Assembly (NCBI RefSeq): GCF_003019035.1
Contig: NZ_CP027448.1
From: Escherichia coli
Lineage (GTDB): Bacteria; Pseudomonadota; Gammaproteobacteria; Enterobacterales; Enterobacteriaceae
Reading direction: 5' to 3' (one strand)
Length of the DNA: 64,000 nucleotides
How positions within the stretch are numbered: position 1 is the first letter of the stretch; each line of letters begins with the position of its first letter. The notes beneath the pieces are model-generated. The model saw nothing but the letters and a program-made list of their open reading frames with translations, did no database searches and was not told where the DNA came from. Position numbers and translations under genes: made by a program. Of this stretch, positions 37,045-53,126 are shown piece by piece.

Positions 37045-37458
37045 AAGACAGTACCTTTTAGATTCTGAAATAAGAGTTTTATTTCATCTACTCATAGTAT
37101 GGTCTGAAAAAATAAGAGCACCCCTAGCAGCGCCCCTAGGGGCATACTATAAAAAAACGCACGGCGCTGCTAGGGGCGGCCCTAATATATCCAAATGTTT
37201 TTCATGAAAATTGTCAAAACTGACCCTAACAAGGGTCGTCATAGGGTCGTTATAGGGTCGTCAACGACCCTATTTAATAATGTAAAATAAATTAAAATAC
37301 ATTATTTAGAACATAAACTAATGATTTAAAAAACAAATCAGCAAAAACTTGTTTTTGCGTGGGGTGTGGTGCTTTTGGTGGTGAGAATCACCAACCTGTT
37401 GAGCCTTTTTGTGGAGTTGGTTAAATTATTTACGGATAAAGTCACCAGAGGTGGAAAA
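37045..37458 (+). other. oriT: oriT; nic between 37367 and 37368 on the plus strand
   Basis: TTTGCGTGGGGTGT|GGTGCTTTTGGTGGTGAGAATCACCAACC is the F/R100 TraI recognition/nic sequence with the adjacent inverted repeat. A BglII site (37502..37507) lies ~140 bp away, as in F oriT maps. The plus strand is therefore the T-strand, entering the recipient 5'->3' towards higher coordinates. Confidence 0.9.
37121..37273. promoter_or_regulatory. TraM-binding (sbm-type) inverted repeats / traM promoter region
   Basis: CCCCTAGCAGCGC (37121..37133) and its exact complement GCGCTGCTAGGGG (37164..37176). GACCCT-AACA-AGGGTC and ATAGGGTCGT-CA-ACGACCCTAT plus repeated AGGGTCGT units lie in 37222..37273. Confidence 0.6.
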
Positions 37459-37968
37459 ATGAAAAAATGGATGTTAGCCATCTGCTTGATGTTTATAAAT
37501 GAGATCTGCCATGCCACTGATTGCTTTGATCTTGCAGGCTGGGATTACAAAATAGATCCTGATTTACTGAGAGCAATATCATGGAAAGAATCCCGTTACC
37601 GGGTTAATGCCATCGGTATTAATCCGGTAACGGGATATGGCAGCGGACTGATGCAGGTAGATTCCCAGCATTTTAACGAACTGGCCCGCTACGGAATTAA
37701 GCCAGAACATCTGACAACAGATCCCTGCATGAACATTTATACCGGTGCTTATTATCTGGCAATAGCATTTAAAAAATGGGGCGTCACCTGGGAGGCCGTT
37801 GGTGCATACAATGCAGGATTCAGGAAATCCGAACGCCAGAACCAGAGACGTCTTGCCTACGCATCAGAGGTTTACCGGATTTATACCGGGATAAAAAGCA
37901 GTAAAGGTATCCGGCTTCCGGCCACGAAGAAATCACTTCCGGAAATTAACAGCGTGCAGAACAATTAA
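37459..37968 (+). CDS. Lytic transglycosylase (gene X / orf169 / P19-like), 169 aa
   Basis: ATG at 37459: [19 protein letters not shown] signal, then ...[15 protein letters not shown]...GLMQVDSQH...AYNAG (SLT catalytic Glu-Ser and family motifs). Confidence 0.92.
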
Positions 37969-38226
37969 TCTTACAGATATTGTCAGATACCGGTTATGCC
38001 GCAAAAGCGGCATGGAAGGCCACACACAAAAATATCATATGAGTGACAATACTGACTGGCCGAAGCCCCGCGAAGAGGTAACCCATCTTATATATACCCG
38101 GTAACTGCGCAGCCTCCTGCCAGACCATTTTTCGCGGGCACAATATTTACAGACAACCGGAAATCCGGTCGATGAAATTGAGGTATATCAGACGACACAG
38201 CAATGCCGAAAAATGATAATATAAGT

Positions 38227-38264: not shown

Positions 38265-39086
38265 TCATGACTTCCACTTTCTGAACTGTTCGGCAATCAC
38301 CCATAACGCCTTGTTGATTCTTATATCACCATCAATACCTGTAATGGCTCTTGTCCTGGTATTTTTCCCGGAGGCACTTCACCCCGATAATCCACCTTTT
38401 ATCATATTCTCCTGAACCCGCTGCCAGGTTGTCCAGAGATCGTTCTGTTTGTCTTCCCGACGACGGGGAGTAATTATCTGTTCAGGTGTCACTGGCGTTT
38501 TATTTTCATCTTCATACCTGACCATCAGTGCAGCTCTGCCAAATAAATGTTGCTCGTCACTGTTAAGATGAATTTCTTTCATCGCCTCCATATTATCAGT
38601 GACCTTATCAAAGACACCGAGCACTTCATACGCTCCCTCGATAACCTGCCCGACAATATCACCTTTATGTGGAACGCGGATTTCGCCAAAATTATTTCCG
38701 CACACCAGGCCATTTGTGCAGACAAAACGAAAAATTCCGGGGATCATCTGATAACTGGATGAACCATCATGTGAATTAAGCAGGATAATTTCAGGAGCTT
38801 CCTGTCCGTTAATATGCCCTTCCCTGCGAAGACGTAACATATGTTTACTGTATTCGCGACGTCCCAAATCACGAACCCGACTCTGACAGGCAAAGAATGG
38901 CTGGAAACCTTCATCACGTAACTTATTGATGATATTGATTGTTGGAATATACGTATAACGTTCACTCCGGGACTCATGTTTATCACCGGAAAATACCGAA
39001 GGCACGAACTGCATTAATTCATCATCCGTTAAAGGACGTTCACGGCGGATGGAATTATACCGACCAAAACGGGAAGCTAATCGCAT
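38265..39086 (-). pseudogene. orf273-like leading-region gene (recalled as DUF932 family) with an in-frame TGA after codon 235
   Basis: ATG 39086 (AGGAG SD), MRLASRFGRYNSIRRERPLTDDELMQFVPSVF...NMIKGGLSG, TGA at 38381..38379. The same frame then continues SASGKNTRTRAITGIDGDIRINKALWVIAEQFRKWKS* to 38265; total 273 codons. Confidence 0.75.
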
Positions 39087-39204
39087 AACAGCTACTCCTT
39101 TATGAAAGAATAAATTTAATAAAAAATTTTTCCGCTTAATATCATCCCCCCTGATCTCCATTAACAAGATTGCAACAATCAGGAGGGATATTCATCACAT
39201 CCGG

Positions 39205-39492
39205 TCAGCAGATCGCCCGGATATCGAGGCCGGCACGCTTAATCTGACGCAGGAACTGTTTGAAGTGATCGGCTTCCGCAATGTTGATATGGCGGAACTG
39301 CTTATCCACACCCTGACTGAGCGCGTAGCTATAACTGAAGGCCATCTTTTCCGGGTGGCTTTTGCGATATTTTTTCAGCTCAGTCAGGCTGCTGAATTCC
39401 AGGACGTCCCACTCTTCCCTGGTGTTTTTTTTCTTCCCGGCAACAAGAAGCGTGTACGACGCGGTGTTAACGTGGATATTTCGGGTACTCAT
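39205..39492 (-). CDS. orf95-like leading-region protein, 95 aa, function unknown
   Basis: First ORF downstream of Frpo-like repeat 1, SD GAGAGGAGAAAG; size and position match orf95 of the F leading region. Confidence 0.65.
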   Translation of the reverse strand: MSTRNIHVNTASYTLLVAGKKKNTREEWDVLEFSSLTELKKYRKSHPEKMAFSYSYALSQGVDKQFRHINIAEADHFKQFLRQIKRAGLDIRAIC

Positions 39493-39513
39493 CCTGCTTT
39501 CTCCTCTCTCTGG

Positions 39514-40142
39514 TTTTCAGCCCCCATCATCTTTTGAGTTTCGGGAGCCGCGGTTTTGACGTTTTGCGGGGACCTGCCTTTTGTTCCCTCCGGTATTCAC
39601 CATCACCTTTTTGAGAACCTTCGCCGCAAGGGGCATCACTGCCACGGACGGAAACGACTGTCCGGGGGCAGACCGCAAAAGTTTTTGCCTGCTTTTGAGC
39701 AAAAAGTTTTGCGGGATGTACATTTCACCCCTGGACTGGCGGAGACGGTTGTGGCTGTATCAGCCCCCGGCGACAGGGGCTTAAACAGGTGAATGGCACC
39801 GGACAGAACAACGGGCAGGGACCCGCCGCAACGACGTGAAGCGCGGTTTGCGAAACGGCGTTGCCCCTTACATCCCGGCGGCCTTTTGCCGGGATGCCGG
39901 GAGCGCAGGCCACGGCGCGACAGAGGCGGCGCGACCGGAACGGTCGCTGCAAGCCCGGGGTTTTCACGCATCGGACCGTAGCGACAGCCCGAAACCGCGC
40001 CAGCGGGTTCGGCGGAGACTGGCAGGTGCGCCAGCAGCTGCCTGTCGGAGTCGGGCCTGACGACCGGATGCCGCCAAGCAGCCGGGAGCCGAAGGTGCGC
40101 CCGGCAGATAGGACAACACTGCAGTAGTCAGAATCAGAGCAG
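39514..40142. repeat. Frpo/ssi-like GC-rich repeat, copy 1 (candidate single-strand DNA promoter)
   Basis: 629 bp, near-identical to 44937..45565 and, over its distal two thirds, to 48264..48879. Multiple hairpins, e.g. CATCCCGGC-N8-GCCGGGATG at 39871..39896; abuts the RBS of the orf95-like gene. Confidence 0.8.
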
Positions 40143-40413
40143 AAAGAAAAAGAGAATAATCACAGGGAAGGTGATGTGATTTCTGACAGGCCATAACCAG
40201 AGAAGGCGGGGGAAAAGAACGGGCGCCGCAGGCGCGCGTTCATCCCCGTTCCTGAAGGGAAACGACCTTCCTGAAGTCAGGTTGTTCATGCCCGTACAAC
40301 ATCAGCAAGGAGAAAGGGGCTACCGGCGAACCAGCAGCCCCTTTATAAAGGCGCTTCAGTAGTCAGACCAGCATCAGTCCTGAAAAGGCGGGCCTGCGCC
40401 CGCCTCCAGGTTG

Positions 40414-40572
40414 CTACTTACCGGATTCGTAAGCCATGAAAGCCGCCACCTCCCTGTGTCCGTCTCTGTAACGAATCTCGCACAGCGATTTTCGTGTCAG
40501 ATAAGTGAATATCAACAGTGTGAGACACACGATCAACACACACCAGACAAGGGAACTTCGTGGTAGTTTCAT
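40414..40572 (-). CDS. hok: Hok/FlmA host-killing toxin, 52 aa
   Basis: Manual translation: [52 protein letters not shown]; below the ORF-track length cutoff. Confidence 0.95.
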
Positions 40573-40630
40573 GGCCTTCTTCTCCTTGCGCAAAGCGCGG
40601 TAAGAGGCTATCCTGATGTGGACTAGACAT
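40418..40630 (-). CDS. mok: Mok (modulation of killing) overlapping reading frame, 70 aa
   Basis: 70-aa [29 protein letters not shown]... overlapping hok in another frame, as in R1 parB. Confidence 0.8.
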
Positions 40631-40686
40631 AGGGATGCCTCGTGGTGGTTAATGAAAATTAACTTACTACGGGGCTATCTTCTTTC
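40621..40686 (+). ncRNA. sok: Sok antisense RNA
   Basis: Plus strand: TTGCGC (40586..91), 17 nt, TATCCT (40609..14). The transcript would then start ~40621, covering the mok start (40630) and containing the GGTTAAT-GAAA-ATTAAC hairpin. Ends are approximate. Confidence 0.6.
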
Positions 40687-40851
40687 TGCCACACAACACG
40701 GCAACAAACCACCTTCACGTCATGAGGCAGAAAGCCTCAAGCGCCGGGCACATCATAGCCCATATACCTGCACGCTGACCACACTCACTTTCCCTGAAAA
40801 TAATCCGCTCATTCAGACCGTTCACGGGAAATCCGTGTGATTGTTGCCGCA

Positions 40852-41571
40852 TCACGCTGCCTCCCGGAGTTTGTTCGGCACCATCCACCGCTCCATCTCA
40901 CGGACAGCGTGACCGGCCTCTCTTGCTGCAAGACTGGCTTCCGCAATAACCTGCCAGAACGGCATATCCTGCCACTGCCAGCGTTCCATTCCGGCCAGTG
41001 ACGGAAAACGCTCGCCCCACTGCCAGAACAGGGTTTCCAGGTCATGCTCTGCCACCCGGTCACTCCAGCGTGCATGCCAGCTTCCGACTGTTTCCGGCGA
41101 ATGGAATGCCAGTTCGATTTCAGCCTGAGCGACCAGCGCCTGGTACGCACGGGCTTTCTGCTCTGCCTCCCTCGCCTGCTGGCGGCTGTACTTCTGCATG
41201 ACCAGCGCGGATTTATGGCGACTGCGTTCCCTGACACGAAACCGCACCGACGGGAACAAGCGCTCTGCTGCATCACCGGGAAGGGGAAGGAGGCAGACCT
41301 CGCCCTGTGTTTCAATCAGCACATCGATGGCATACAGCCACTGAAGACGGTTGCCGTGCAGTTCTTCTGCGGTCAGGGACGGCATGAAAAATCGCAGGTC
41401 AGACAGCGATATCCTGCGGCTTCCGTTCAGACAGCGGAAAAACGCCCCCGCATACGGATATTCAGCCAGCGTGTTACCCTGATGGCGGCGTTTTTCGGTC
41501 TCCGCCACCGCCCGCCATACGGCCTGTTGCTCTGTGCTGAGGGGAACCAGTGCCTGTGAACGTGCGCTCAT
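40852..41571 (-). CDS. psiA: PsiA, 239 aa
   Basis: [62 protein letters not shown]... recognised as PsiA; overlaps psiB stop. Confidence 0.95.
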
Positions 41572-42002
41572 GCCTGACCTCCTTCCGCCATCAGGATATG
41601 GATGATGTCACTGACGCTGTACCCCTGCGCGTCCAGTGACGCCGCCAGTGCCAGTGAATGGCTGACGGCTTCCGGTGCAAACCGCCGCTGTACCTGAACC
41701 ACCGCAAACGGCTCACCACCGGCATTCACCAGAACCAGCACCCAGACCTGAGAGACATCGCCCGGTGAACATAACGCCAGGTGAAAACGTTCGTGGGCAG
41801 GCGTGAAACGGACCTGGACGGGGAAAAATCCGCCAAACTCGCTGCCGTACTCGCCGTTCATCGTCCAGTTGTCCGGCGCATCCAGCTCCCGCATCACGGC
41901 GTGTGTCAGCTCACGGCGTTCATCACTTCCGGCAGCCCGGATATCTTCATATTCCTGTGTGTTCATGGTCTGTAATACATTCAGGGTCAGTTCAGTTTTC
42001 AT
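41568..42002 (-). CDS. psiB: PsiB plasmid SOS inhibitor (RecA antagonist), 144 aa
   Basis: ATG at 42002: [53 protein letters not shown]... Confidence 0.95.
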
Positions 42003-42056
42003 CACGGTATCTCCCTTGCTGCCGCCCCGTCTCCGGCGGGGCGGTGTGGTTGTTCA

Positions 42057-44015
42057 TCAGGCGGCATCAGCCAGGTTATCGGTGCGTTCAGTGGCATCCG
42101 TCTGTGGGCGTGGTGCACACATCCAGCCAGGCACCCAGCGGTTGTCTTTCATATGGTGCTCTGCATGTTCAGCCGCATCGCCTTTCTTCATCTTCTCCGC
42201 GTCCCGTGCAGCACCGGACAGTCCTGCCTCATTCAGGGCTGCGATAATCTGCGGCTTTTTCAGGTGTCCGAAGAAGTTTGCTTTTGTCGGCTGCCACCAG
42301 TCGCGCATGTGAAAGCCGATGGCGCTTTCCAGCGAATCCAGCGGACTGCGTGACGTGTGACCATACTCACGGGTCTGAACACCGTGGATGCTGCATGCAG
42401 TGCAGAAACTGAGCAGGGACAACAGAACCTCCTGGCTGAGTGACAGGAACGTCGTCATATCCCGTGCCCATCCCTCCGGTAACAGGGCTGCAAGACGGGC
42501 TTTTTCTGCCATCATCGCCATGAATGCGGCACCGTCCTTCCCCGATGGCGCATCGCTGGTCAGCGCATAATGCTCACATTCCAGACGAATTTTTGCGGGA
42601 TTGCTGTACGCCCCGCTACCAAACACATTCAGGCAGAGCGTCCATGCCAGCAGTGCCAGGGATTTGTCCGGCTGTTGCATAAGCGCCGCCTGGACTGCCA
42701 GCGTGCGCTCTGAGGACATTTTCGTCAGCAGTGGCAGACTGATTTCCTCCACGGAGGCTTTCTCCTGCACCTGTTCCGTGTGGTCAGCGTCGTCAGCCAC
42801 ATCATCCTCACTGCGTAACTGCACACCACGCTGGACACATACGTTTCCATAACGCCAGGACACCACCACGCCACTTCCGGCACGCATCTCCGGCGTCCAC
42901 GCCCTGACCTTCGCCATGCAGTCAATCAGCTTCATTTCTGCTTCCAGCAGGTCGGATTCCTCACACTGGTTTTCCAGCGCATCGTAACGTGCCATCAGTT
43001 CGTTCAGGCGTTCTTCTTCTGCCTCCGTCAGCACCGCTTCCGGCTCCGGCAGACTGCGGTATGTTCCGGCATCCTCACGGCACTCACCAACGGCCTCCAT
43101 GCGTCCGGCACACCATCCCCAGCCCTCGGCTTCCCGAAGGTGTTCAGCAACAGCCTGGAGTTTTTCCAGCAGGGCAGCATCGAGCGCAACACAGTCCACA
43201 TAGCCACCCTCGTCGTCGCTGAACAAATCGGTGCGCAGTTCATCTGGCGAGAAGGCATCAGCCCCCACAAAGCGGAATTTAGTGTTCCCCACCACCGCCA
43301 CTTCACTTTCGGTCACCAGACGACGAATGGTCTGTACTCCCGGTTTTCCGCCCCATCCCGACTGACAGGCAGCTTCAAACACCTGCACCTGACGCGCGGT
43401 GTCGTTCTCCAGCGCCAGCGCCTGACAGTGCTCTGTGGTGATGCGGTCTTCTGCCAGCGCATCGAGGATGACAGGCGCAAGGTCTGCCAGTTTCAGCATT
43501 CGCTGAACGTGGCGGGGTGAATAGCCCAGCAAATCACCGATTTGTGCAGGCGTTTTGCCTTCCTGCGCCATTGCACGGAATCCGGCAATCTGTTCGGCAG
43601 GGTGCATATCCCGACGATGACCGTTTTCAGTCATTGATGCGGCAGTCGCCAGTTCCTGCGGAATAACCTTCACGCGGACAGGCCAGTCAGCAGGAAGGAT
43701 GTTGCGCTCTGCCAGCATGTTGAGTGCTGCCAGTCGGCGACCGCCTGCGGCGACACCGTAACGGTCACCTGGCAGGGCATGAACAACCAGATTCTGCAGC
43801 AGGCCGACGCCCTTAATGGACTCTGCCAGTTCGCTGACGGACTCCGCAGAATACGGCACCGTGCGCACATTCAGCGGTGACTTAATCAGCGAGGCCAGCG
43901 GCACGCTCACTTCAGCCGTCTCCGCCAGCAGGGCCGACAGGACTGTTTCCTGCGTTTTTGCAGGTTTACGGCTGGATTTACGCTCCGTTTTTACCTTAGA
44001 CTCTGTAACTGACAT
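42057..44015 (-). CDS. ParB-like nuclease-domain protein, 652 aa (F leading-region orf652 type)
   Basis: ATG 44015 with AAAGGAG SD; N-terminal ParB/Srx-like box (LLQNLVVHALPGDRYGVAAGGRRLAAL), HTH (TPAQIGDLLGYSPRHVQRML). Confidence 0.85.
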   Translation of the reverse strand: MSVTESKVKTERKSSRKPAKTQETVLSALLAETAEVSVPLASLIKSPLNVRTVPYSAESVSELAESIKGVGLLQNLVVHALPGDRYGVAAGGRRLAALNMLAERNILPADWPVRVKVIPQELATAASMTENGHRRDMHPAEQIAGFRAMAQEGKTPAQIGDLLGYSPRHVQRMLKLADLAPVILDALAEDRITTEHCQALALENDTARQVQVFEAACQSGWGGKPGVQTIRRLVTESEVAVVGNTKFRFVGADAFSPDELRTDLFSDDEGGYVDCVALDAALLEKLQAVAEHLREAEGWGWCAGRMEAVGECREDAGTYRSLPEPEAVLTEAEEERLNELMARYDALENQCEESDLLEAEMKLIDCMAKVRAWTPEMRAGSGVVVSWRYGNVCVQRGVQLRSEDDVADDADHTEQVQEKASVEEISLPLLTKMSSERTLAVQAALMQQPDKSLALLAWTLCLNVFGSGAYSNPAKIRLECEHYALTSDAPSGKDGAAFMAMMAEKARLAALLPEGWARDMTTFLSLSQEVLLSLLSFCTACSIHGVQTREYGHTSRSPLDSLESAIGFHMRDWWQPTKANFFGHLKKPQIIAALNEAGLSGAARDAEKMKKGDAAEHAEHHMKDNRWVPGWMCAPRPQTDATERTDNLADAA

Positions 44016-44079
44016 ATATTTCTCCTTTGACCGGGGTGGTTGTATGTCTGCCGGACGTGATCCCCGTCCGGCACCTCTC

Positions 44080-45565
<1,486 letters not shown>

Positions 45566-45777
45566 CAGGAAAAAGAAGAACAGTAGCAGTAGCAGTAGCA
45601 GGAACAACAACATCAGTAACAGACAAATGACAGGCATGAAGAAACAGAAGCCCCCATCAGAACGTCCGCGTAATGAAAGGGGCGGCGCGTGAGCGCGGCC
45701 CCTTTCAGCGCCACCGGCGCGCGGTCTTTTCCCGGCGCGGGCAGACGGGCATTTATCCTCCCGCCTGCCCGGCGTCT

Positions 45778-46341
45778 TCAGGCACGCAGACGAATAATCA
45801 TCGTCGGGACATCGGTATAAGCAAACGTGCCGCGCGGCAGCTCCTCGCGGACGTCAGAAAACGGTAACAGCTTCTCCTGCTGGCGTGGTCCGTTGAGACA
45901 GACGGCGACCAGCACGCCACCCGGACGCAACAGGGAAAAGGCCCGCAGGATATGCCGGATATCCTGCCCGTGGCTGAACGGCGGATTCATGATAACCCGG
46001 CTGTAATACTGCGCCGGCTGCCATTCCATGAAGTCGCCACACTGAACCCTGACACCGTTAAAATTTTCCCGCAGATACCGGACCAGCCCGCTGTTGATTT
46101 CCACCGCATCACACATGGCCCCCGGCGCGGTATCCCGAATCGCCCGCAGTATGGCCCCGGTGCCGGCAGAGGGTTCCAGAATGTGATCACGGTTGCTGAT
46201 CTCCGCCAGCATCACCAGGCGATCACAGACCGGGGCAGGAGTCACAAAAAGCTGAGATTCAGCCCGGATTTCAGCAACCGGCGCGGCGTTATCCAGCCTT
46301 GCGCGCATCAGCCGGATACGTTCTCTTAACTGACTGTGCAT
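45778..46341 (-). CDS. Orphan class-I SAM-dependent (probable N6-adenine DNA) methyltransferase, 187 aa
   Basis: Motif I ILEPSAGTGAIL followed by motif IV VIMNPPFS; no adjacent restriction gene. Confidence 0.78.
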   Translation of the reverse strand: MHSQLRERIRLMRARLDNAAPVAEIRAESQLFVTPAPVCDRLVMLAEISNRDHILEPSAGTGAILRAIRDTAPGAMCDAVEINSGLVRYLRENFNGVRVQCGDFMEWQPAQYYSRVIMNPPFSHGQDIRHILRAFSLLRPGGVLVAVCLNGPRQQEKLLPFSDVREELPRGTFAYTDVPTMIIRLRA

Positions 46342-46388
46342 GTCATTATCTCCGTCATCCCCCGGGGATTTTCCCGGGGGGATATACC

Positions 46389-47750
46389 TTATTTCTGTGG
46401 AATTTCCGTGATTTTCATGTCGGTGATATACACATTCACCAGGCGGAAATTATTGTCCATTGTGCGGCGGTAGCGGTATGCCCCGTGGTCTTCTGCTTCT
46501 GCCACACTGCGCACGGCCTTACAGTCCCGGGGCAGGGCGGCCCACTGTGCCTTTGTCATTTCCCGGAAACCTTCCCCCGGATAGTTGACTACCGGCGGAC
46601 GCTTCGCGGCCTGACTGGCGACGGCAGCCTCTTCTGCCGATGGTGCTTTGTAGTCCGTGATGCGATCGGGCGTCACTTTCATCGTGCCGCTGTACCCGAG
46701 AAAACTGTAATTTGGCGTTGTGACTGAACTCACCACCCCGTTGCTTTTGTTCACACGGATGATGGTCAGCCACTCGCCCCGGCTGAAAACCTGTCCGCCC
46801 GGCTCAAAATCCTGTGTCCGGGTAACCACGCCGCCGCTTTCGTCCAGCATGGCACGCTCATAGATCAGGCGGTTCTGATAGTGGTTAACCCAGCGTTGCT
46901 GACGCTGGATCTGCCGTTCATGACAGCGGATCGCAATTTCGCGGGCCTGCTCCGTGGTGATGATGTCATCATCCAGGGCCGACCATAACGATCGACTTCC
47001 TTCATACTGGCTTTTTTCTGCCGGGCGCGGATACGTATCCAGCGGGAAACAGGCGCTAATATGGTCATGACTGCTGATGAGTTTTGCCATATTCAGATCC
47101 AGCGATTCAGCCCGCCACATCGTCAGATATTTCTGCGACTGTGCGATGGTCTTTTCAGCCTTGCGCAAATCAGCTTCGATTTTTTTGATACGACGCCAGC
47201 GAACGTCCGGACGTTCTTTATACTTCGCGTGAAGCAGTGCCGACCGCGCGCGTTCTTCCCAGTATTCCGCACGTTCAAAGAGCATCACGGCACGTTTCAT
47301 GCCGTTTTCAATACGCTGCGCATCACGACGGGCGCGGCGTTCGCTGTGATGCCCCACAAGAATGGGCTGACCGGGCGGGATCATCGCGGCCAGTCTTTCC
47401 ACTTCATCAAGTGCCTGTGCGGATTCACTGGCCCGCTTTCCGCTGTATCCGGTAAACCGCTCCGCCCGTGCTTCCTGACGTTCAGCGAGCGTGCTGTCTT
47501 CATCCTCAATCTCTCCGGCAAGTGAGAGGAGCACGTCTTCCCGGCCCGGTGTCCAGGCTGGCGCGACAAACAGCGCCTGTTTGGGTGCCCAGCGAAAACC
47601 GGCATCATGCACTTTTTTATACGTCTCCGGGTCGAGGCGTGACGCGGCATACAGGCGCAGTTTGTTGTCATCCGGTGAGTAGGTCGCGCGGTACATCTGC
47701 ACAGGGCTGGCGGCTTCCGGGGCGGTCATGGTGATGGCTGCTAATGTCAT
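46389..47750 (-). CDS. Conserved leading-region protein, 453 aa, unknown function (recalled as DUF3560-like)
   Basis: Long uninterrupted ORF with a coiled-coil-like middle; in a block with the methyltransferase downstream of repeat 3. Confidence 0.6.
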   Translation of the reverse strand: MTLAAITMTAPEAASPVQMYRATYSPDDNKLRLYAASRLDPETYKKVHDAGFRWAPKQALFVAPAWTPGREDVLLSLAGEIEDEDSTLAERQEARAERFTGYSGKRASESAQALDEVERLAAMIPPGQPILVGHHSERRARRDAQRIENGMKRAVMLFERAEYWEERARSALLHAKYKERPDVRWRRIKKIEADLRKAEKTIAQSQKYLTMWRAESLDLNMAKLISSHDHISACFPLDTYPRPAEKSQYEGSRSLWSALDDDIITTEQAREIAIRCHERQIQRQQRWVNHYQNRLIYERAMLDESGGVVTRTQDFEPGGQVFSRGEWLTIIRVNKSNGVVSSVTTPNYSFLGYSGTMKVTPDRITDYKAPSAEEAAVASQAAKRPPVVNYPGEGFREMTKAQWAALPRDCKAVRSVAEAEDHGAYRYRRTMDNNFRLVNVYITDMKITEIPQK

Positions 47751-47801
47751 AAAATGTTCTCCTTCCGTCTGTTGCCGCCCCTCGCGGGGCGGCTCACCTC
47801 A

Positions 47802-48032
47802 TCAGTTAAAAGCGCGTTTCAGTTCGAGTGTGCGGAGCACCTGCCCGAAGGCCGTGTTTTTCATGGCGGGGATGTGTACACCACGCCCCCGGTGAAAACT
47901 CCGGGCTATGTGTCGCCCGAAGGCTTTCAGCACGGGGTCAATTTCCGGCGCGGGGATGTCTTCGCGTCTGAAACGGGGATGACGGCGGGGCTTTACAGCC
48001 GCTGCGGAAGGTGAAACAATACTTACCGTCAT
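47802..48032 (-). CDS. Hypothetical basic protein, 76 aa
   Basis: First ORF downstream of repeat 3; no recognisable motifs. Confidence 0.4.
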   Translation of the reverse strand: MTVSIVSPSAAAVKPRRHPRFRREDIPAPEIDPVLKAFGRHIARSFHRGRGVHIPAMKNTAFGQVLRTLELKRAFN

Positions 48033-48263
48033 AAATGAAACTCCTTATGACTGTTGAATGGAACCGCAGAAACTGCTCGAACAGTTTTTGCGGTGTGGAT
48101 TAAGCAGGTCCTCCCCGGCCTGCTTTTTTCATATCTGCGTCTGACGTTCTCCGGTGTTTTCCTCCTTCTGTTCCTGCGTTCTCATTACCTGCCAGCCGGA
48201 TGACTGACAGAACAAATAAATGCGTATTGCCGGAGCCTGAAATAAATCCTGATTTTTAAAGAA

Positions 48264-48879
48264 CATCACCCGTTGAGTTTCGGGAGCCGCGGTTTTGACG
48301 TTTCGCGGGAACCTGCTGCTGTATTCCCTGTGGTATGAACTTCACCCGTTTGAGAACCTTCGCCGCAAGGGGCATCACTGCCACGGCCTGACGCACCTGT
48401 CCTGGGCAGAACGCAAAATTTTTTACCGGGTTTGGGGTAAAAAATTTTGTGGGCTGTTCATTTACCCTGGACAGTCAGTGCGGCAGGTTGTGGCTGTATC
48501 AGCCCCCGGCGACAGGGACTCATACGGGTGTGTGGCACCCGGCAGGCAATGAGCAGGGACCCGCCGCAACGACGGAGAGCGCGTGCGCGAAACGGCGTTG
48601 CCCCTTACATCCCGGCGGCCTTTTGCCGGGATGCCAGGAGCGCAGGCCACGGCGCGACAGAGGCGGCGCGACCGGAACGGTCGCTGCAAGCCAGGGGGTT
48701 TCACGCATCGGACCGTAGCGGCAGCCCGAAACCGCGCCAGCGGGTTCGGCGGAGACTGGCAGGTGCGCCAGCAGCTGCCTGTCGGAGTCGGGCCTGACGA
48801 CCGGATGCCGCCAGGCAGCCGGGAGCCGAAGGTGCGCCCGGCAGACAGAACAACACTGCAGTAGTCAGAATCAGAGCAG
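48264..48879. repeat. Frpo/ssi-like GC-rich repeat, copy 3 (proximal third diverged)
   Basis: 48264..~48560 only loosely similar to copies 1/2, with shared blocks GTTGAGTTTCGGGAGCCGCGGTTTTGACGTTT and TTTGAGAACCTTCGCCGCAAGGGGCATCACTGCCACGG. From ~48560 to 48879 it is almost identical. Confidence 0.75.
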
Positions 48880-49072
48880 CAGATAAAGGAACAACAACAA
48901 CATCAGGAACAGTTCCACAACATAAGAAAGAAACACTCCTGAGTCAGACACATCACAGACGGGAAGGGTAACGGGCGACGCGCCAGCGTGGCCCGCTTCC
49001 CTTCCGGCAGGCGTCAGCCTGCCAGGGGTTTTCGCGCGGGCTGACAGGCGGCCTCCACCGCCTGCCCCTGTA

Positions 49073-49729: not shown

Positions 49730-50155
49730 TCAGTCCAGTGCCGCGTAAATCGCGTTACATTCGGGGTGAAATTCGATGTGGCTCCACAACTGCGCATCGC
49801 GCATCCTGTACAGGTGAGTCAGTCCTGCATCACCGCTGTCGTGGTACAGCCACAACTGACGGTTAATCACAAGGGAAGTCACAATGATGCCTGCGGCATC
49901 GGCGCTGACCGTACGGTCAAACCAGTTTTCACCGTTCACCATGTGGAAACGGTCGCCATCCGGCATCATGTAACCGCCACCGTCCGGCAGGCGGATGAAG
50001 TGCCAGAATCCGCCTTCATATTCCGGCATCATTTTTTTCGCCAGCGCGTACACAGATGCCTCGGCATACAGAAAATCATTGCCAAACAGATACAGCAGAA
50101 AGGAGAGACGGTCGCATTCTTCAACATTCAGAGTGACAGGTTTCGCATACTGCAT
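49730..50155 (-). CDS. klcA: KlcA/ArdB-type antirestriction protein, 141 aa
   Basis: ATG 50155 (GGAGG SD): [93 protein letters not shown]... recognised as KlcA. Confidence 0.85.
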
Positions 50156-50537
50156 GGGATTTCCTCCGTTGTTCACATATTCCGCGACACCGGGCGGTGC
50201 CGTGCCTCCATAAAAGCCGGGCGATAAGGCGGGGATGCACAGGGCGCAAGGGAAGCCGCAGCCTGACGCACACGGCTGACGGGAGTTGGAGGGGGAGACC
50301 GCGAAATCTGAGCGGGTGAACGACCGGAAAATCACGGCAGACGGGAAGGAGGGACCGGGTGACCGCAGCGTTCATTTTACCCTTGCATCCCCGCCAGCCC
50401 GGCTAAGATGGAGGCACGGCACAGCCCGCACACGACACGGTGGCCACATAACTGAAAACCCACAAGGCCATGCCTGCATGGCCGGGTAAAGCGGAGCCGG
50501 CGGCGACTTCCTTTGTGCTCTGTCCGGGGACCGGCAG

Positions 50538-52059: not shown

Positions 52060-52743
52060 TTACGCAGCCTCCGGTTCAAACCAGTTATCATTCGCGGCCC
52101 CCTGCTGCATGGCCCGTTGCACGGCGGCCATTCGTTGCTGTCCGGCACGGTGATACTGTTCAAGCAGCTCGATACCGATATACCGGCGTCCGGACTGAAG
52201 GGCGACCACGCAGGTTGAGCCGCTGCCTGCAAACGGGTCCAGCACAATCGCGTTCGGATGTGTGAAGCTCTCAATCAGTGGTTGCAGGCTGGTAACGGGC
52301 TTTTCCGTCGGGTGATGGCGGTTGCCTGAATATTTCCAGCCCAGCACGTCCGGCAGCAGGTTTTGTGGCAGACGTGGACGGCCTTTTGCCAGGATGTAGG
52401 CGCATTCGTGGCGATAGCCCACATATGCGGCCTTCGATGTGTAGTTTTTGGTGAAGACCAGGTGCTCGACCACACTGAATCCCGCATTTTTCCAGGCGGC
52501 CATAAAGCGATCGACGCGGTTCCAGCCATAGAGGCTCACCATCAGCGCGTCTTTTTTCAGCACACGGTACATTTCATTACAGGCCGGTTGCAGCCATTCA
52601 TCGGTTTTATCACCCGCGATGGTACGTCCCTGACGGTCACGAAAACCGACGAGGTACGGCGGGTCAGTCAGCATGAAATCAATGGCGTTATCAGGGATAC
52701 GGGCCATAACATCGATGCAGTTACCGAGGACAAAACGGGACAT
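52060..52743 (-). CDS. Orphan DNA N6-adenine/N4-cytosine methyltransferase (beta-class), 227 aa
   Basis: Motif IV LTDPPYL near the N-terminus, motif I VLDPFAGSGSTC near the C-terminus, HPTEKP in between; no cognate endonuclease. Confidence 0.88.
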   Translation of the reverse strand: MSRFVLGNCIDVMARIPDNAIDFMLTDPPYLVGFRDRQGRTIAGDKTDEWLQPACNEMYRVLKKDALMVSLYGWNRVDRFMAAWKNAGFSVVEHLVFTKNYTSKAAYVGYRHECAYILAKGRPRLPQNLLPDVLGWKYSGNRHHPTEKPVTSLQPLIESFTHPNAIVLDPFAGSGSTCVVALQSGRRYIGIELLEQYHRAGQQRMAAVQRAMQQGAANDNWFEPEAA

Positions 52744-53085
52744 AACAACGCTCCTTCTTTCACAGAGGGCACCGGGAGGGCCCCCTGTGGTGCCCGTTCC
52801 CCGCTGCCTGTGGGCTGTTCACCGCGTCCGGTAACTGGTCAGGCCGACCGTGGAATACCGCAGCCGTCGTCTTTTTGACGGCAAGGTTATGCCGCGAAAG
52901 CGGCTTGAAGGGCGTTCATCAGAAAAGGGCGACGGGCTGGCGTACACTGTCACCGACGCCAGCCGGGAGCGGTAAAAGCGACCGTTCCGTGCCCGCCGGA
53001 CGCGGGACACTGACCACAGGCAGCGTTCCTGCCGCGCCGCGTCAGCCGGCGCAGTAAAAAGAGGAGCACGGCGACATCCTTTGTC

Positions 53086-53114
53086 GGAAAAGAAACGGGC
53101 GGTTGCCCGCCCGT
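53086..53114 (-). terminator. Terminator hairpin after ORF 53127..54053
   Basis: Minus strand ACGGGCGG-GCAA-CCGCCCGT followed by TTCTTTTCC. Confidence 0.55.
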
Positions 53115-53126
53115 CTCCGTCATACT

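Follow-up and report, generated by a model that had tools for sequence, protein, structure and literature searches.

A 64,000-nucleotide stretch of Escherichia coli DNA (RefSeq assembly GCF_003019035.1, contig NZ_CP027448.1; hereafter the window) is that of an F-like conjugative plasmid, and three direct repeats of about 0.63 kb lie in its leading region. We conclude with high confidence that these repeats are class-1 single-stranded DNA (ssDNA) promoters, equivalent to Frpo/ssiD of plasmid F and kin of ssi1-3 of ColIb-P9. Such repeats are already known: those of F and ColIb-P9 have been characterised by experiment, and catalogues list them for thousands of plasmids.

Exactly three copies were detected within the window by repeat search, three-way alignment and self-BLAST, at coordinates within about 10 nt of those given by an earlier reading of the DNA letters (the original prediction):

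39513-40153, plus strand: copy 1 (the full 0.64-kb unit), in the Frpo1 position and upstream of the orf95/ygeA-like and DUF932/ygeB-like genes.
44936-45576, plus strand: copy 2, at the Frpo2 position, upstream of ssb, the DUF905 and ParB-like genes, psiB and psiA.
48264-48888, plus strand: copy 3, with a core of the F Frpo2 sequence type, upstream of a 76-aa open reading frame (ORF), a DUF3560 gene and a class I S-adenosylmethionine (SAM) methyltransferase gene.

Reference element sequences were taken from the supplements of PMC11541004 and compared with the window by BLAST. F ssiD/Frpo aligned with the plus strand of all three copies over about 340-352 nt, namely at 39521-39870 in copy 1 (95.7% identity), 44944-45293 in copy 2 (94.9%) and 48275-48607 in copy 3 (78.2%). 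The identity of copy 3 to a functional Frpo2 fragment, which drove the anti-CRISPR gene acrIIA4 from the transferred (T) strand in vivo (PMC11541004), was 91.8%. Alignment with F also placed copy 1 at the site of Frpo1, before ygeA/ygeB, and copy 2 at that of Frpo2, before ssb-psiA. ColIb-P9 ssi1-3 matched the apical core at 39658-39770 with 75-81% identity over about 110 nt (E = 1e-10 to 1e-17). The class-2 reference (ssp2/'Frpo3', a klcA/ardB-type hairpin) aligned at 50184-50517 only and matched none of the repeats. On these alignments, Frpo proper takes up no more of each ~0.62-kb repeat than its gene-proximal ~350 nt. The identification as Frpo/ssi elements that had been proposed for the whole unit was borne out in homology, hairpin, strand and position, and is narrowed here to that proximal part.

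The ssiD element of F, which is Frpo1, is said to go back to Masai and Arai in 1997, and ssi1, ssi2 and ssi3 of ColIb-P9/IncI1 reportedly to Bates in 1999 and Nasim in 2004. F Frpo2 was described by Couturier et al. 2023 (PMC9849209), and ssp1a and ssp1b are alternative names of Frpo1 and Frpo2 (bioRxiv 10.64898/2026.01.09.698686). A survey counted 13,089 homologues of Frpo, spread over 6,006 conjugative elements (PMC11541004), and Frpo/ssi elements were later grouped as class-1 ssDNA promoters (Wen et al. 2025, PMC12672017). In F and ColIb-P9, sigma-70 RNA polymerase transcribes the elements as single strand only, and as duplex they are silent (PMC9849209, PMC12672017). Deletion of Frpo1 or Frpo2 in F led to loss of the early production of downstream proteins in transconjugants (PMC9849209).

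Copies 1 and 2 of the window were 96.4% identical over 641 nt, and copy 3 showed 87.6-87.7% identity to both. The distal 300 nt of copy 3 were 97% identical and, in an ungapped comparison, the proximal 300 nt only 67%, which agrees with the near-identity of copies 1 and 2, the near-perfect distal part of copy 3 and its diverged proximal part as first described. The repeats have the highest GC content of the region (0.63-0.65). All three palindromes that had been quoted as examples of self-complementarity are present in copy 1: CATCCCGGC-N8-GCCGGGATG at 39871-39896, GCGACCGGAACGGTCGC at about 39932-39948 and CCGCAAAAGTTTTTGC-N10-GCAAAAAGTTTTGCGG at 39673-39714. Copy 1 stops 21 nt short of the orf95-like start codon (ATG at 39492) and copy 2 the same distance short of that of ssb (44914); a GGAG-type ribosome-binding site (RBS) lies between copy end and ATG. 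The 14-kb region was matched by at least 5000 plasmid records, mainly from Escherichia, Klebsiella, Salmonella and Shigella; the top matches showed 98.4% identity, and one of them, studied in detail, was typed IncFIA.

The strand geometry was set by the origin of transfer (oriT) and by the leading genes that follow each repeat, whose identities were assigned from Pfam and from the annotation of a 98.4%-identical relative and are as originally named:

37359-37375, plus strand: oriT nic motif, GTGGGGTGT followed directly by GGTGCTTT, an exact match to the F motif, with nic between 37367 and 37368.
38379-39492, minus strand: block 1, the orf95/ygeA-like gene (39205-39492) and the DUF932/ygeB-like gene (38379-39167).
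40852-44914, minus strand: block 2, ssb (44375-44914), the DUF905 gene (44080-44313) and the ParB-like gene (42057-44111).
Within 40852-44914, minus strand: the psi genes of block 2, psiB (41568-42005) and psiA (40852-41571).
45778-48032, minus strand: block 3, the 76-aa ORF (47802-48032), the DUF3560 gene (46389-47750) and the class I SAM-dependent methyltransferase gene (45778-46341).

Because the nic motif is on the plus strand, this is the transferred strand, entering 5' to 3' toward higher coordinates. To the left of nic are traM, the traJ 5' untranslated region and FinP, and to the right are the leading genes, all on the minus strand, of which the plus strand is the template. F itself has its nic motif on the strand opposite to its leading genes, the same geometry as in the window and the one that had been deduced before. 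The repeats lie 2-11.5 kb downstream of nic along the plus strand. One gene of block 1 departs from its counterparts: the DUF932 (ygeB-like) ORF, 38379-39167 on the minus strand, encodes at most 262 aa, whereas the versions of F and of the closest relative have 273 aa; it also has a shorter spacer to the orf95-like gene, and is a divergent allele inside an otherwise 98%-identical region.

The plus strand of each copy was folded as ssDNA, with z scores taken against shuffles. The predicted fold of each copy was one long imperfect hairpin of ~320 nt, stable in all three:

39538-39856, plus strand: copy 1 hairpin, -95.6 kcal/mol, z = -9.2, with 117 base pairs.
44961-45279, plus strand: copy 2 hairpin, -102.4 kcal/mol, z = -10.1.
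48277-48593, plus strand: copy 3 hairpin, -95.5 kcal/mol, z = -7.8.

Folding of the plus strand was better than that of its complement by about 9-11 kcal/mol, and the complementary strand of copy 1 reached -84.4 kcal/mol only. A homology-free fold scan of 36000-58000 (300-nt windows, threshold of -75 kcal/mol, as in PMC12672017) recovered all three repeats, with the hairpin halves 9-10 kcal/mol better on the plus strand. Relative to the pairing of copy 1, double-sided compensatory changes numbered 4 in copy 3, 8 in a Serratia element and 4-5 in insect-metagenome elements; these were counted by script, arm by arm. MAFFT alignment was faulty in the apical part for the more distant homologues.

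Twelve sequences were folded in all. The full hairpin was displayed for seven of them (copies 1 and 3, F Frpo2, ColIb-P9 ssi1 and ssi2, one insect-metagenome and one Salmonella element), and the other five gave an apical or an unrelated stem only. The seven hairpins had a common architecture, consisting, from the apex, of an A/T-rich stem, a bulge of 8-10 nt on the 3' arm and the CCCCTGGAC duplex, followed toward the base by an internal loop (atca versus atc), a GCCCC duplex and the outer stem. The apical parts in copy 1 are as follows:

39689-39698, plus strand: apical loop CTGCTTTTGA, from the fold.
39673-39714, plus strand: apical A/T-rich stem CCGCAAAAGTTTTTGC/GCAAAAAGTTTTGCGG with its loop, kept in the F and ColIb-P9 elements, and the place where ColIb ssi1-3 align.
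39719-39727, plus strand: 3'-arm bulge of 8-10 nt, TACATTTCA, found in 7/12 folded sequences, i.e. in all seven displayed.

No Rfam family covers the repeats, and the lone weak match, to mir-208, is a chance one. Another GC-rich sequence, at 45650-45974 between the methyltransferase gene and copy 2, also folds like the repeats (-83 kcal/mol); it does not look T-strand-specific, because its fold is equally strong on both strands.

Public annotation offers a different view of the same hairpin arm, in which the repeats would encode small proteins. [quoted passage not shown] However, the ORF has no Pfam or NCBIfam match and no SSB domain, it is not found in copy 3, and the real SSB gene lies just downstream. 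It falls within a hairpin arm, in GC-rich sequence that has ORFs in several frames on both strands. We regard protein-coding repeats as extremely improbable, and the SSB label is probably a propagated annotation error.

If the repeats work as Frpo does, the plus strand would be nicked at nic during mating and would enter the recipient 5' end first. On arrival, the proximal ~320 nt of each repeat would fold into the long imperfect hairpin, part of whose stem would mimic a double-stranded sigma-70 promoter at which host RNA polymerase would start. The polymerase would then read the same strand toward lower coordinates and produce mRNA of the downstream block before the complementary strand exists. 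The RNA started at the hairpin could also prime that complementary strand, and once the region becomes duplex the hairpin would be lost and the promoter turned off. For the window, transcription of the single strand, shut-off on duplex conversion and priming are carried over from the publications on F and ColIb-P9.

The priming step could also be put in first place, with the repeats acting chiefly as priming signals (ssi) for the complementary strand and gene expression being a side effect or coming from duplex promoters. It was as a priming signal that F ssiD was originally isolated, and in vitro the Frpo RNA serves as a primer for DNA synthesis (summarised in PMC7690428); ssp1/Frpo transcription contributes to early conversion in vivo (bioRxiv 10.64898/2026.01.09.698686). 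Another priming signal of F, ssiE, has a counterpart in the window, at 37963-38151 on the plus (transferred) strand, about 0.6 kb from nic and 97.4% identical to this single-strand initiation signal. We nevertheless consider priming as the chief role very unlikely, given that each copy is upstream of an operon in the correct orientation and that the F deletions described above abolished the early downstream proteins. The two roles are not truly exclusive, because published work backs both.

Several observations weigh against identifying the repeats as class-1 promoters. Copy 3 ends at a distance of 231 nt from the start codon of the 76-aa ORF (48032), so that the earlier claim that each copy ends a few nucleotides from an RBS holds for copies 1 and 2 and fails for copy 3, and the outer stem of copy 3 is diverged. 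The distal ~290 nt of each repeat are unexplained by the Frpo model. A consensus scan of copy 1 and its flanks (39400-40250) gave no canonical -35/-10 pair, and in a position-weight scan of 11 class-1 elements, with the class-2 element of the window taken in for comparison, no strong match was conserved throughout the family.

Two candidate hexamer pairs flank one internal loop of the hairpin, TGGACT-N18-TGTATC on the 3' arm (candidate B) and TTGAGA-N17-CATCAC on the 5' arm (candidate C). Their positions in copy 1, together with that of a TTGACG box pointed out in the original prediction, are as follows:

39732-39737, plus strand: TGGACT, putative -35 of candidate B, in the CCCCTGGAC duplex of the 3' arm, reading outward from the loop.
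39756-39763, plus strand: TGTATC(A), putative -10 or melting site of candidate B, 18 nt from TGGACT.
39611-39639, plus strand: candidate C, TTGAGA-N17-CATCAC (TTGAGA at 39611-39616), on the 5' arm, reading toward the loop, from the position-weight scan.
39556-39561, plus strand: TTGACG box, on the outer 5' arm.

The internal loop is 4 nt by 3 nt (atca at 39760-39763 opposite atc at 39635-39637) and overlaps TGTATC(A). The TGGAC box is conserved in F-type, Serratia and insect elements and also in those of ColIb, and TGTATC (39756-39761) fits the -10 consensus weakly, with no A at -11. The apical A/T-rich stem resembles an UP element and, for candidate B, sits where an UP element would, so it may act as one. 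The class-2 element of the window has its hexamers arranged as in candidate B (TTGCAT-N15-TAAGAT on the 3' arm), and the candidate B part is present in the working Frpo2 construct of PMC11541004. Candidate C has better hexamers than B, with TATCAC in the copy 2 version, and is conserved in F-type, Serratia and insect elements but absent from ColIb; the partner of TTGAGA is missing from the functional construct of PMC11541004. From the fold and these comparisons we lean slightly toward polymerase binding at candidate B, that is, at TGGACT, an 18-nt spacer and the mismatch loop at 39756-39763, which would place the start near 39630 and make the leader about 140 nt long. Binding at candidate C is possible but rather doubtful.

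The TTGACG box is present as claimed, but its use as a -35 is unlikely. The best -10 at 17 nt downstream is TTTTGT, which is not usable, ColIb does not have the box, and the still-working Frpo2 fragment is without its pairing partner (PMC11541004, supplement 11). It is probably part of the leader or of the outer stem. The top position-weight match in copy 1, TTGAGC-N18-TACATT, was rejected; it lies partly in the loop and is not conserved in copy 2.

Beyond the Frpo part, each repeat continues into sequence of a different kind, whose components in copy 1 are as follows:

39871-39896, plus strand: H2, a small hairpin formed by the CATCCCGGC-N8-GCCGGGATG palindrome, just distal to the main hairpin.
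39925-40150, plus strand: distal GC-rich module (~225 nt), outside F ssiD/Frpo in the alignment with F.

The ~70 nt beyond the Frpo part contain H2 and a conserved motif, AGCGCAGG(C/T)CACGGCGCGACAG, which the ColIb-P9 ssi sequences share distal to their hairpins. When compared by eye, the ColIb, insect and Salmonella elements had a hairpin with a different stem sequence at the place of H2. The distal module is 97% identical across the three copies, and it was found in at least 5000 plasmid records, at 2-3 places in most of 30 sampled records. Both F copies have a different, shorter sequence in its place. Its fold is only moderately more stable than those of shuffles (z = -3.3), Rfam gave no match, and its ORFs match no protein family. 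The pattern of the distal module points to gene conversion between the copies of one plasmid. As a tentative and rather unlikely idea drawn from the sequence comparison, the 0.62-kb unit could be a composite of the Frpo hairpin and a ~225-290-nt distal module and purine-rich tract, held alike within one plasmid but swapped between lineages, with its own job on the incoming strand. That job might be to insulate the hairpin from the upstream operon, to aid folding against SSB or to slow complementary-strand synthesis, the last of which has been reported for ssp2; alternatively, the module is possibly a mere passenger of gene conversion.

Directly distal to every repeat the transferred strand is purine- and A-rich, at 40128-40220, 45577-45650 and 48889-48960. 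In the coding sense the same three tracts are pyrimidine-rich, with short TGTTG/TGCTAC-like repeats. AT skew peaks at 0.31-0.52 in these tracts and likewise at the class-2 element, and F has a CTT-rich tract at the equivalent place.

Comparison with F showed agreement in sequence (95% for copies 1 and 2), position relative to nic, downstream operons and strand. The F Frpo hairpin is also like those of the window in its length of ~320 nt, its A/T-rich apex, its CCCCTGGAC duplex and its internal loops. In contrast, F has two copies and the plasmid of the window three, and F lacks a 3.3-kb block, the one that holds the 76-aa ORF and the DUF3560 and methyltransferase genes. At sites where copies 2 and 3 differ, F Frpo2 (NC_002483, 8265-8605) is a mosaic, whose distal and inner part matches copy 3 at 48/50 sites and whose proximal part matches copy 2 at 52/54. 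The switch falls in a stretch of ~27 nt that corresponds to 45031-45057 of copy 2 and to 48347-48373 of copy 3. The simplest reading of these sequences is that F lost the 3.3-kb block when a repeat of the copy 3 type recombined with one of the copy 2 type; a recombinant F Frpo2 would account for the missing DUF3560/methyltransferase block. Similar recombination between Frpo repeats is reported for IncI plasmids (PMC3817090).

The repeats might also be ordinary double-stranded modules for regulation or recombination, such as IncN-like repressor-controlled cassettes or remnants of mobile elements, with hairpins arising as a by-product of GC-rich palindromes. Repeat recombination has reshaped leading regions, as the F Frpo2 mosaic and the IncI case show, the distal halves are 97% identical while the two F copies share their own shorter distal sequence, which suggests gene conversion, and the distal module folds only modestly above shuffles. 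However, chance falls far short of explaining the 320-nt hairpin (z = -8 to -10), which is biased to the T strand and shows compensatory changes. In addition, no sigma-70-like duplex promoter was detected in copy 1 and its flanks (39400-40250), and neither a transposase nor terminal inverted repeats flank the units. We judge this alternative highly improbable.

The class-1 assignment was further set against other systems. ColIb-P9/IncI1 has three dispersed ssi copies, each before a leading-region operon, and shares the hairpin architecture and the apical core with the window; its outer stems have diverged past BLAST alignment and its downstream genes are partly different (ardA in IncI1). Class-2 (ssp2, 'Frpo3') and class-3 promoters follow the same logic, with a T-strand hairpin before anti-restriction or methylase operons (PMC12672017; bioRxiv 10.1101/2025.04.03.647016), but they show no sequence similarity to the three repeats, and the class-2 hexamers are clearer. 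The conserved upstream repeats of >400 bp before the establishment genes of IncN pKM101, likened here by description only, are also long and stand before several leading-region transcription units; unlike those of the window, they are thought to be repressor-controlled duplex elements (PMC6294495).

Further elements were found in the same region:

50184-50517, plus strand: homologue, with 83% identity, of a published candidate for a class-2 ssDNA promoter, upstream of an antirestriction gene (49730-50335); the 3' arm of its hairpin carries TTGCAT (50383)-N15-TAAGAT (50404).
52725-53124, plus strand: strong fold (-83.5 kcal/mol in a 300-nt window) just upstream of an N6_N4 DNA methylase gene (52060-52743).
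48027-48128, plus strand: AS-pc01 (RF02875, 'antisense to pHK01_035'), 89.7 bits in Rfam.
40570-40746, minus strand: sok antitoxin RNA of the hok/sok (flm) locus, 88.9 bits in Rfam, between copies 1 and 2.

From its fold and its lying in the expected place, 52725-53124 is probably a class-3 ssDNA promoter. In the 231-nt spacer of copy 3, AS-pc01 faces the leader and start codon of the 76-aa ORF from the opposite strand, and the copy 3 operon may have a second, antisense layer of control. The hok/sok locus has been suggested to guard the Frpo1-Frpo2 segment against recombinational loss (PMC9849209).

For the window the result is confirmatory, and the elements are ordinary for such plasmids. It maps an F-like leading region with three copies cleanly, and this map could be used as a template for annotation. 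Promoters of the Frpo type explain how genes for SOS inhibition, SSB, anti-restriction and other establishment functions are expressed within minutes, before the incoming DNA is duplex, and because they allow this early expression they are central to the spread of resistance plasmids.

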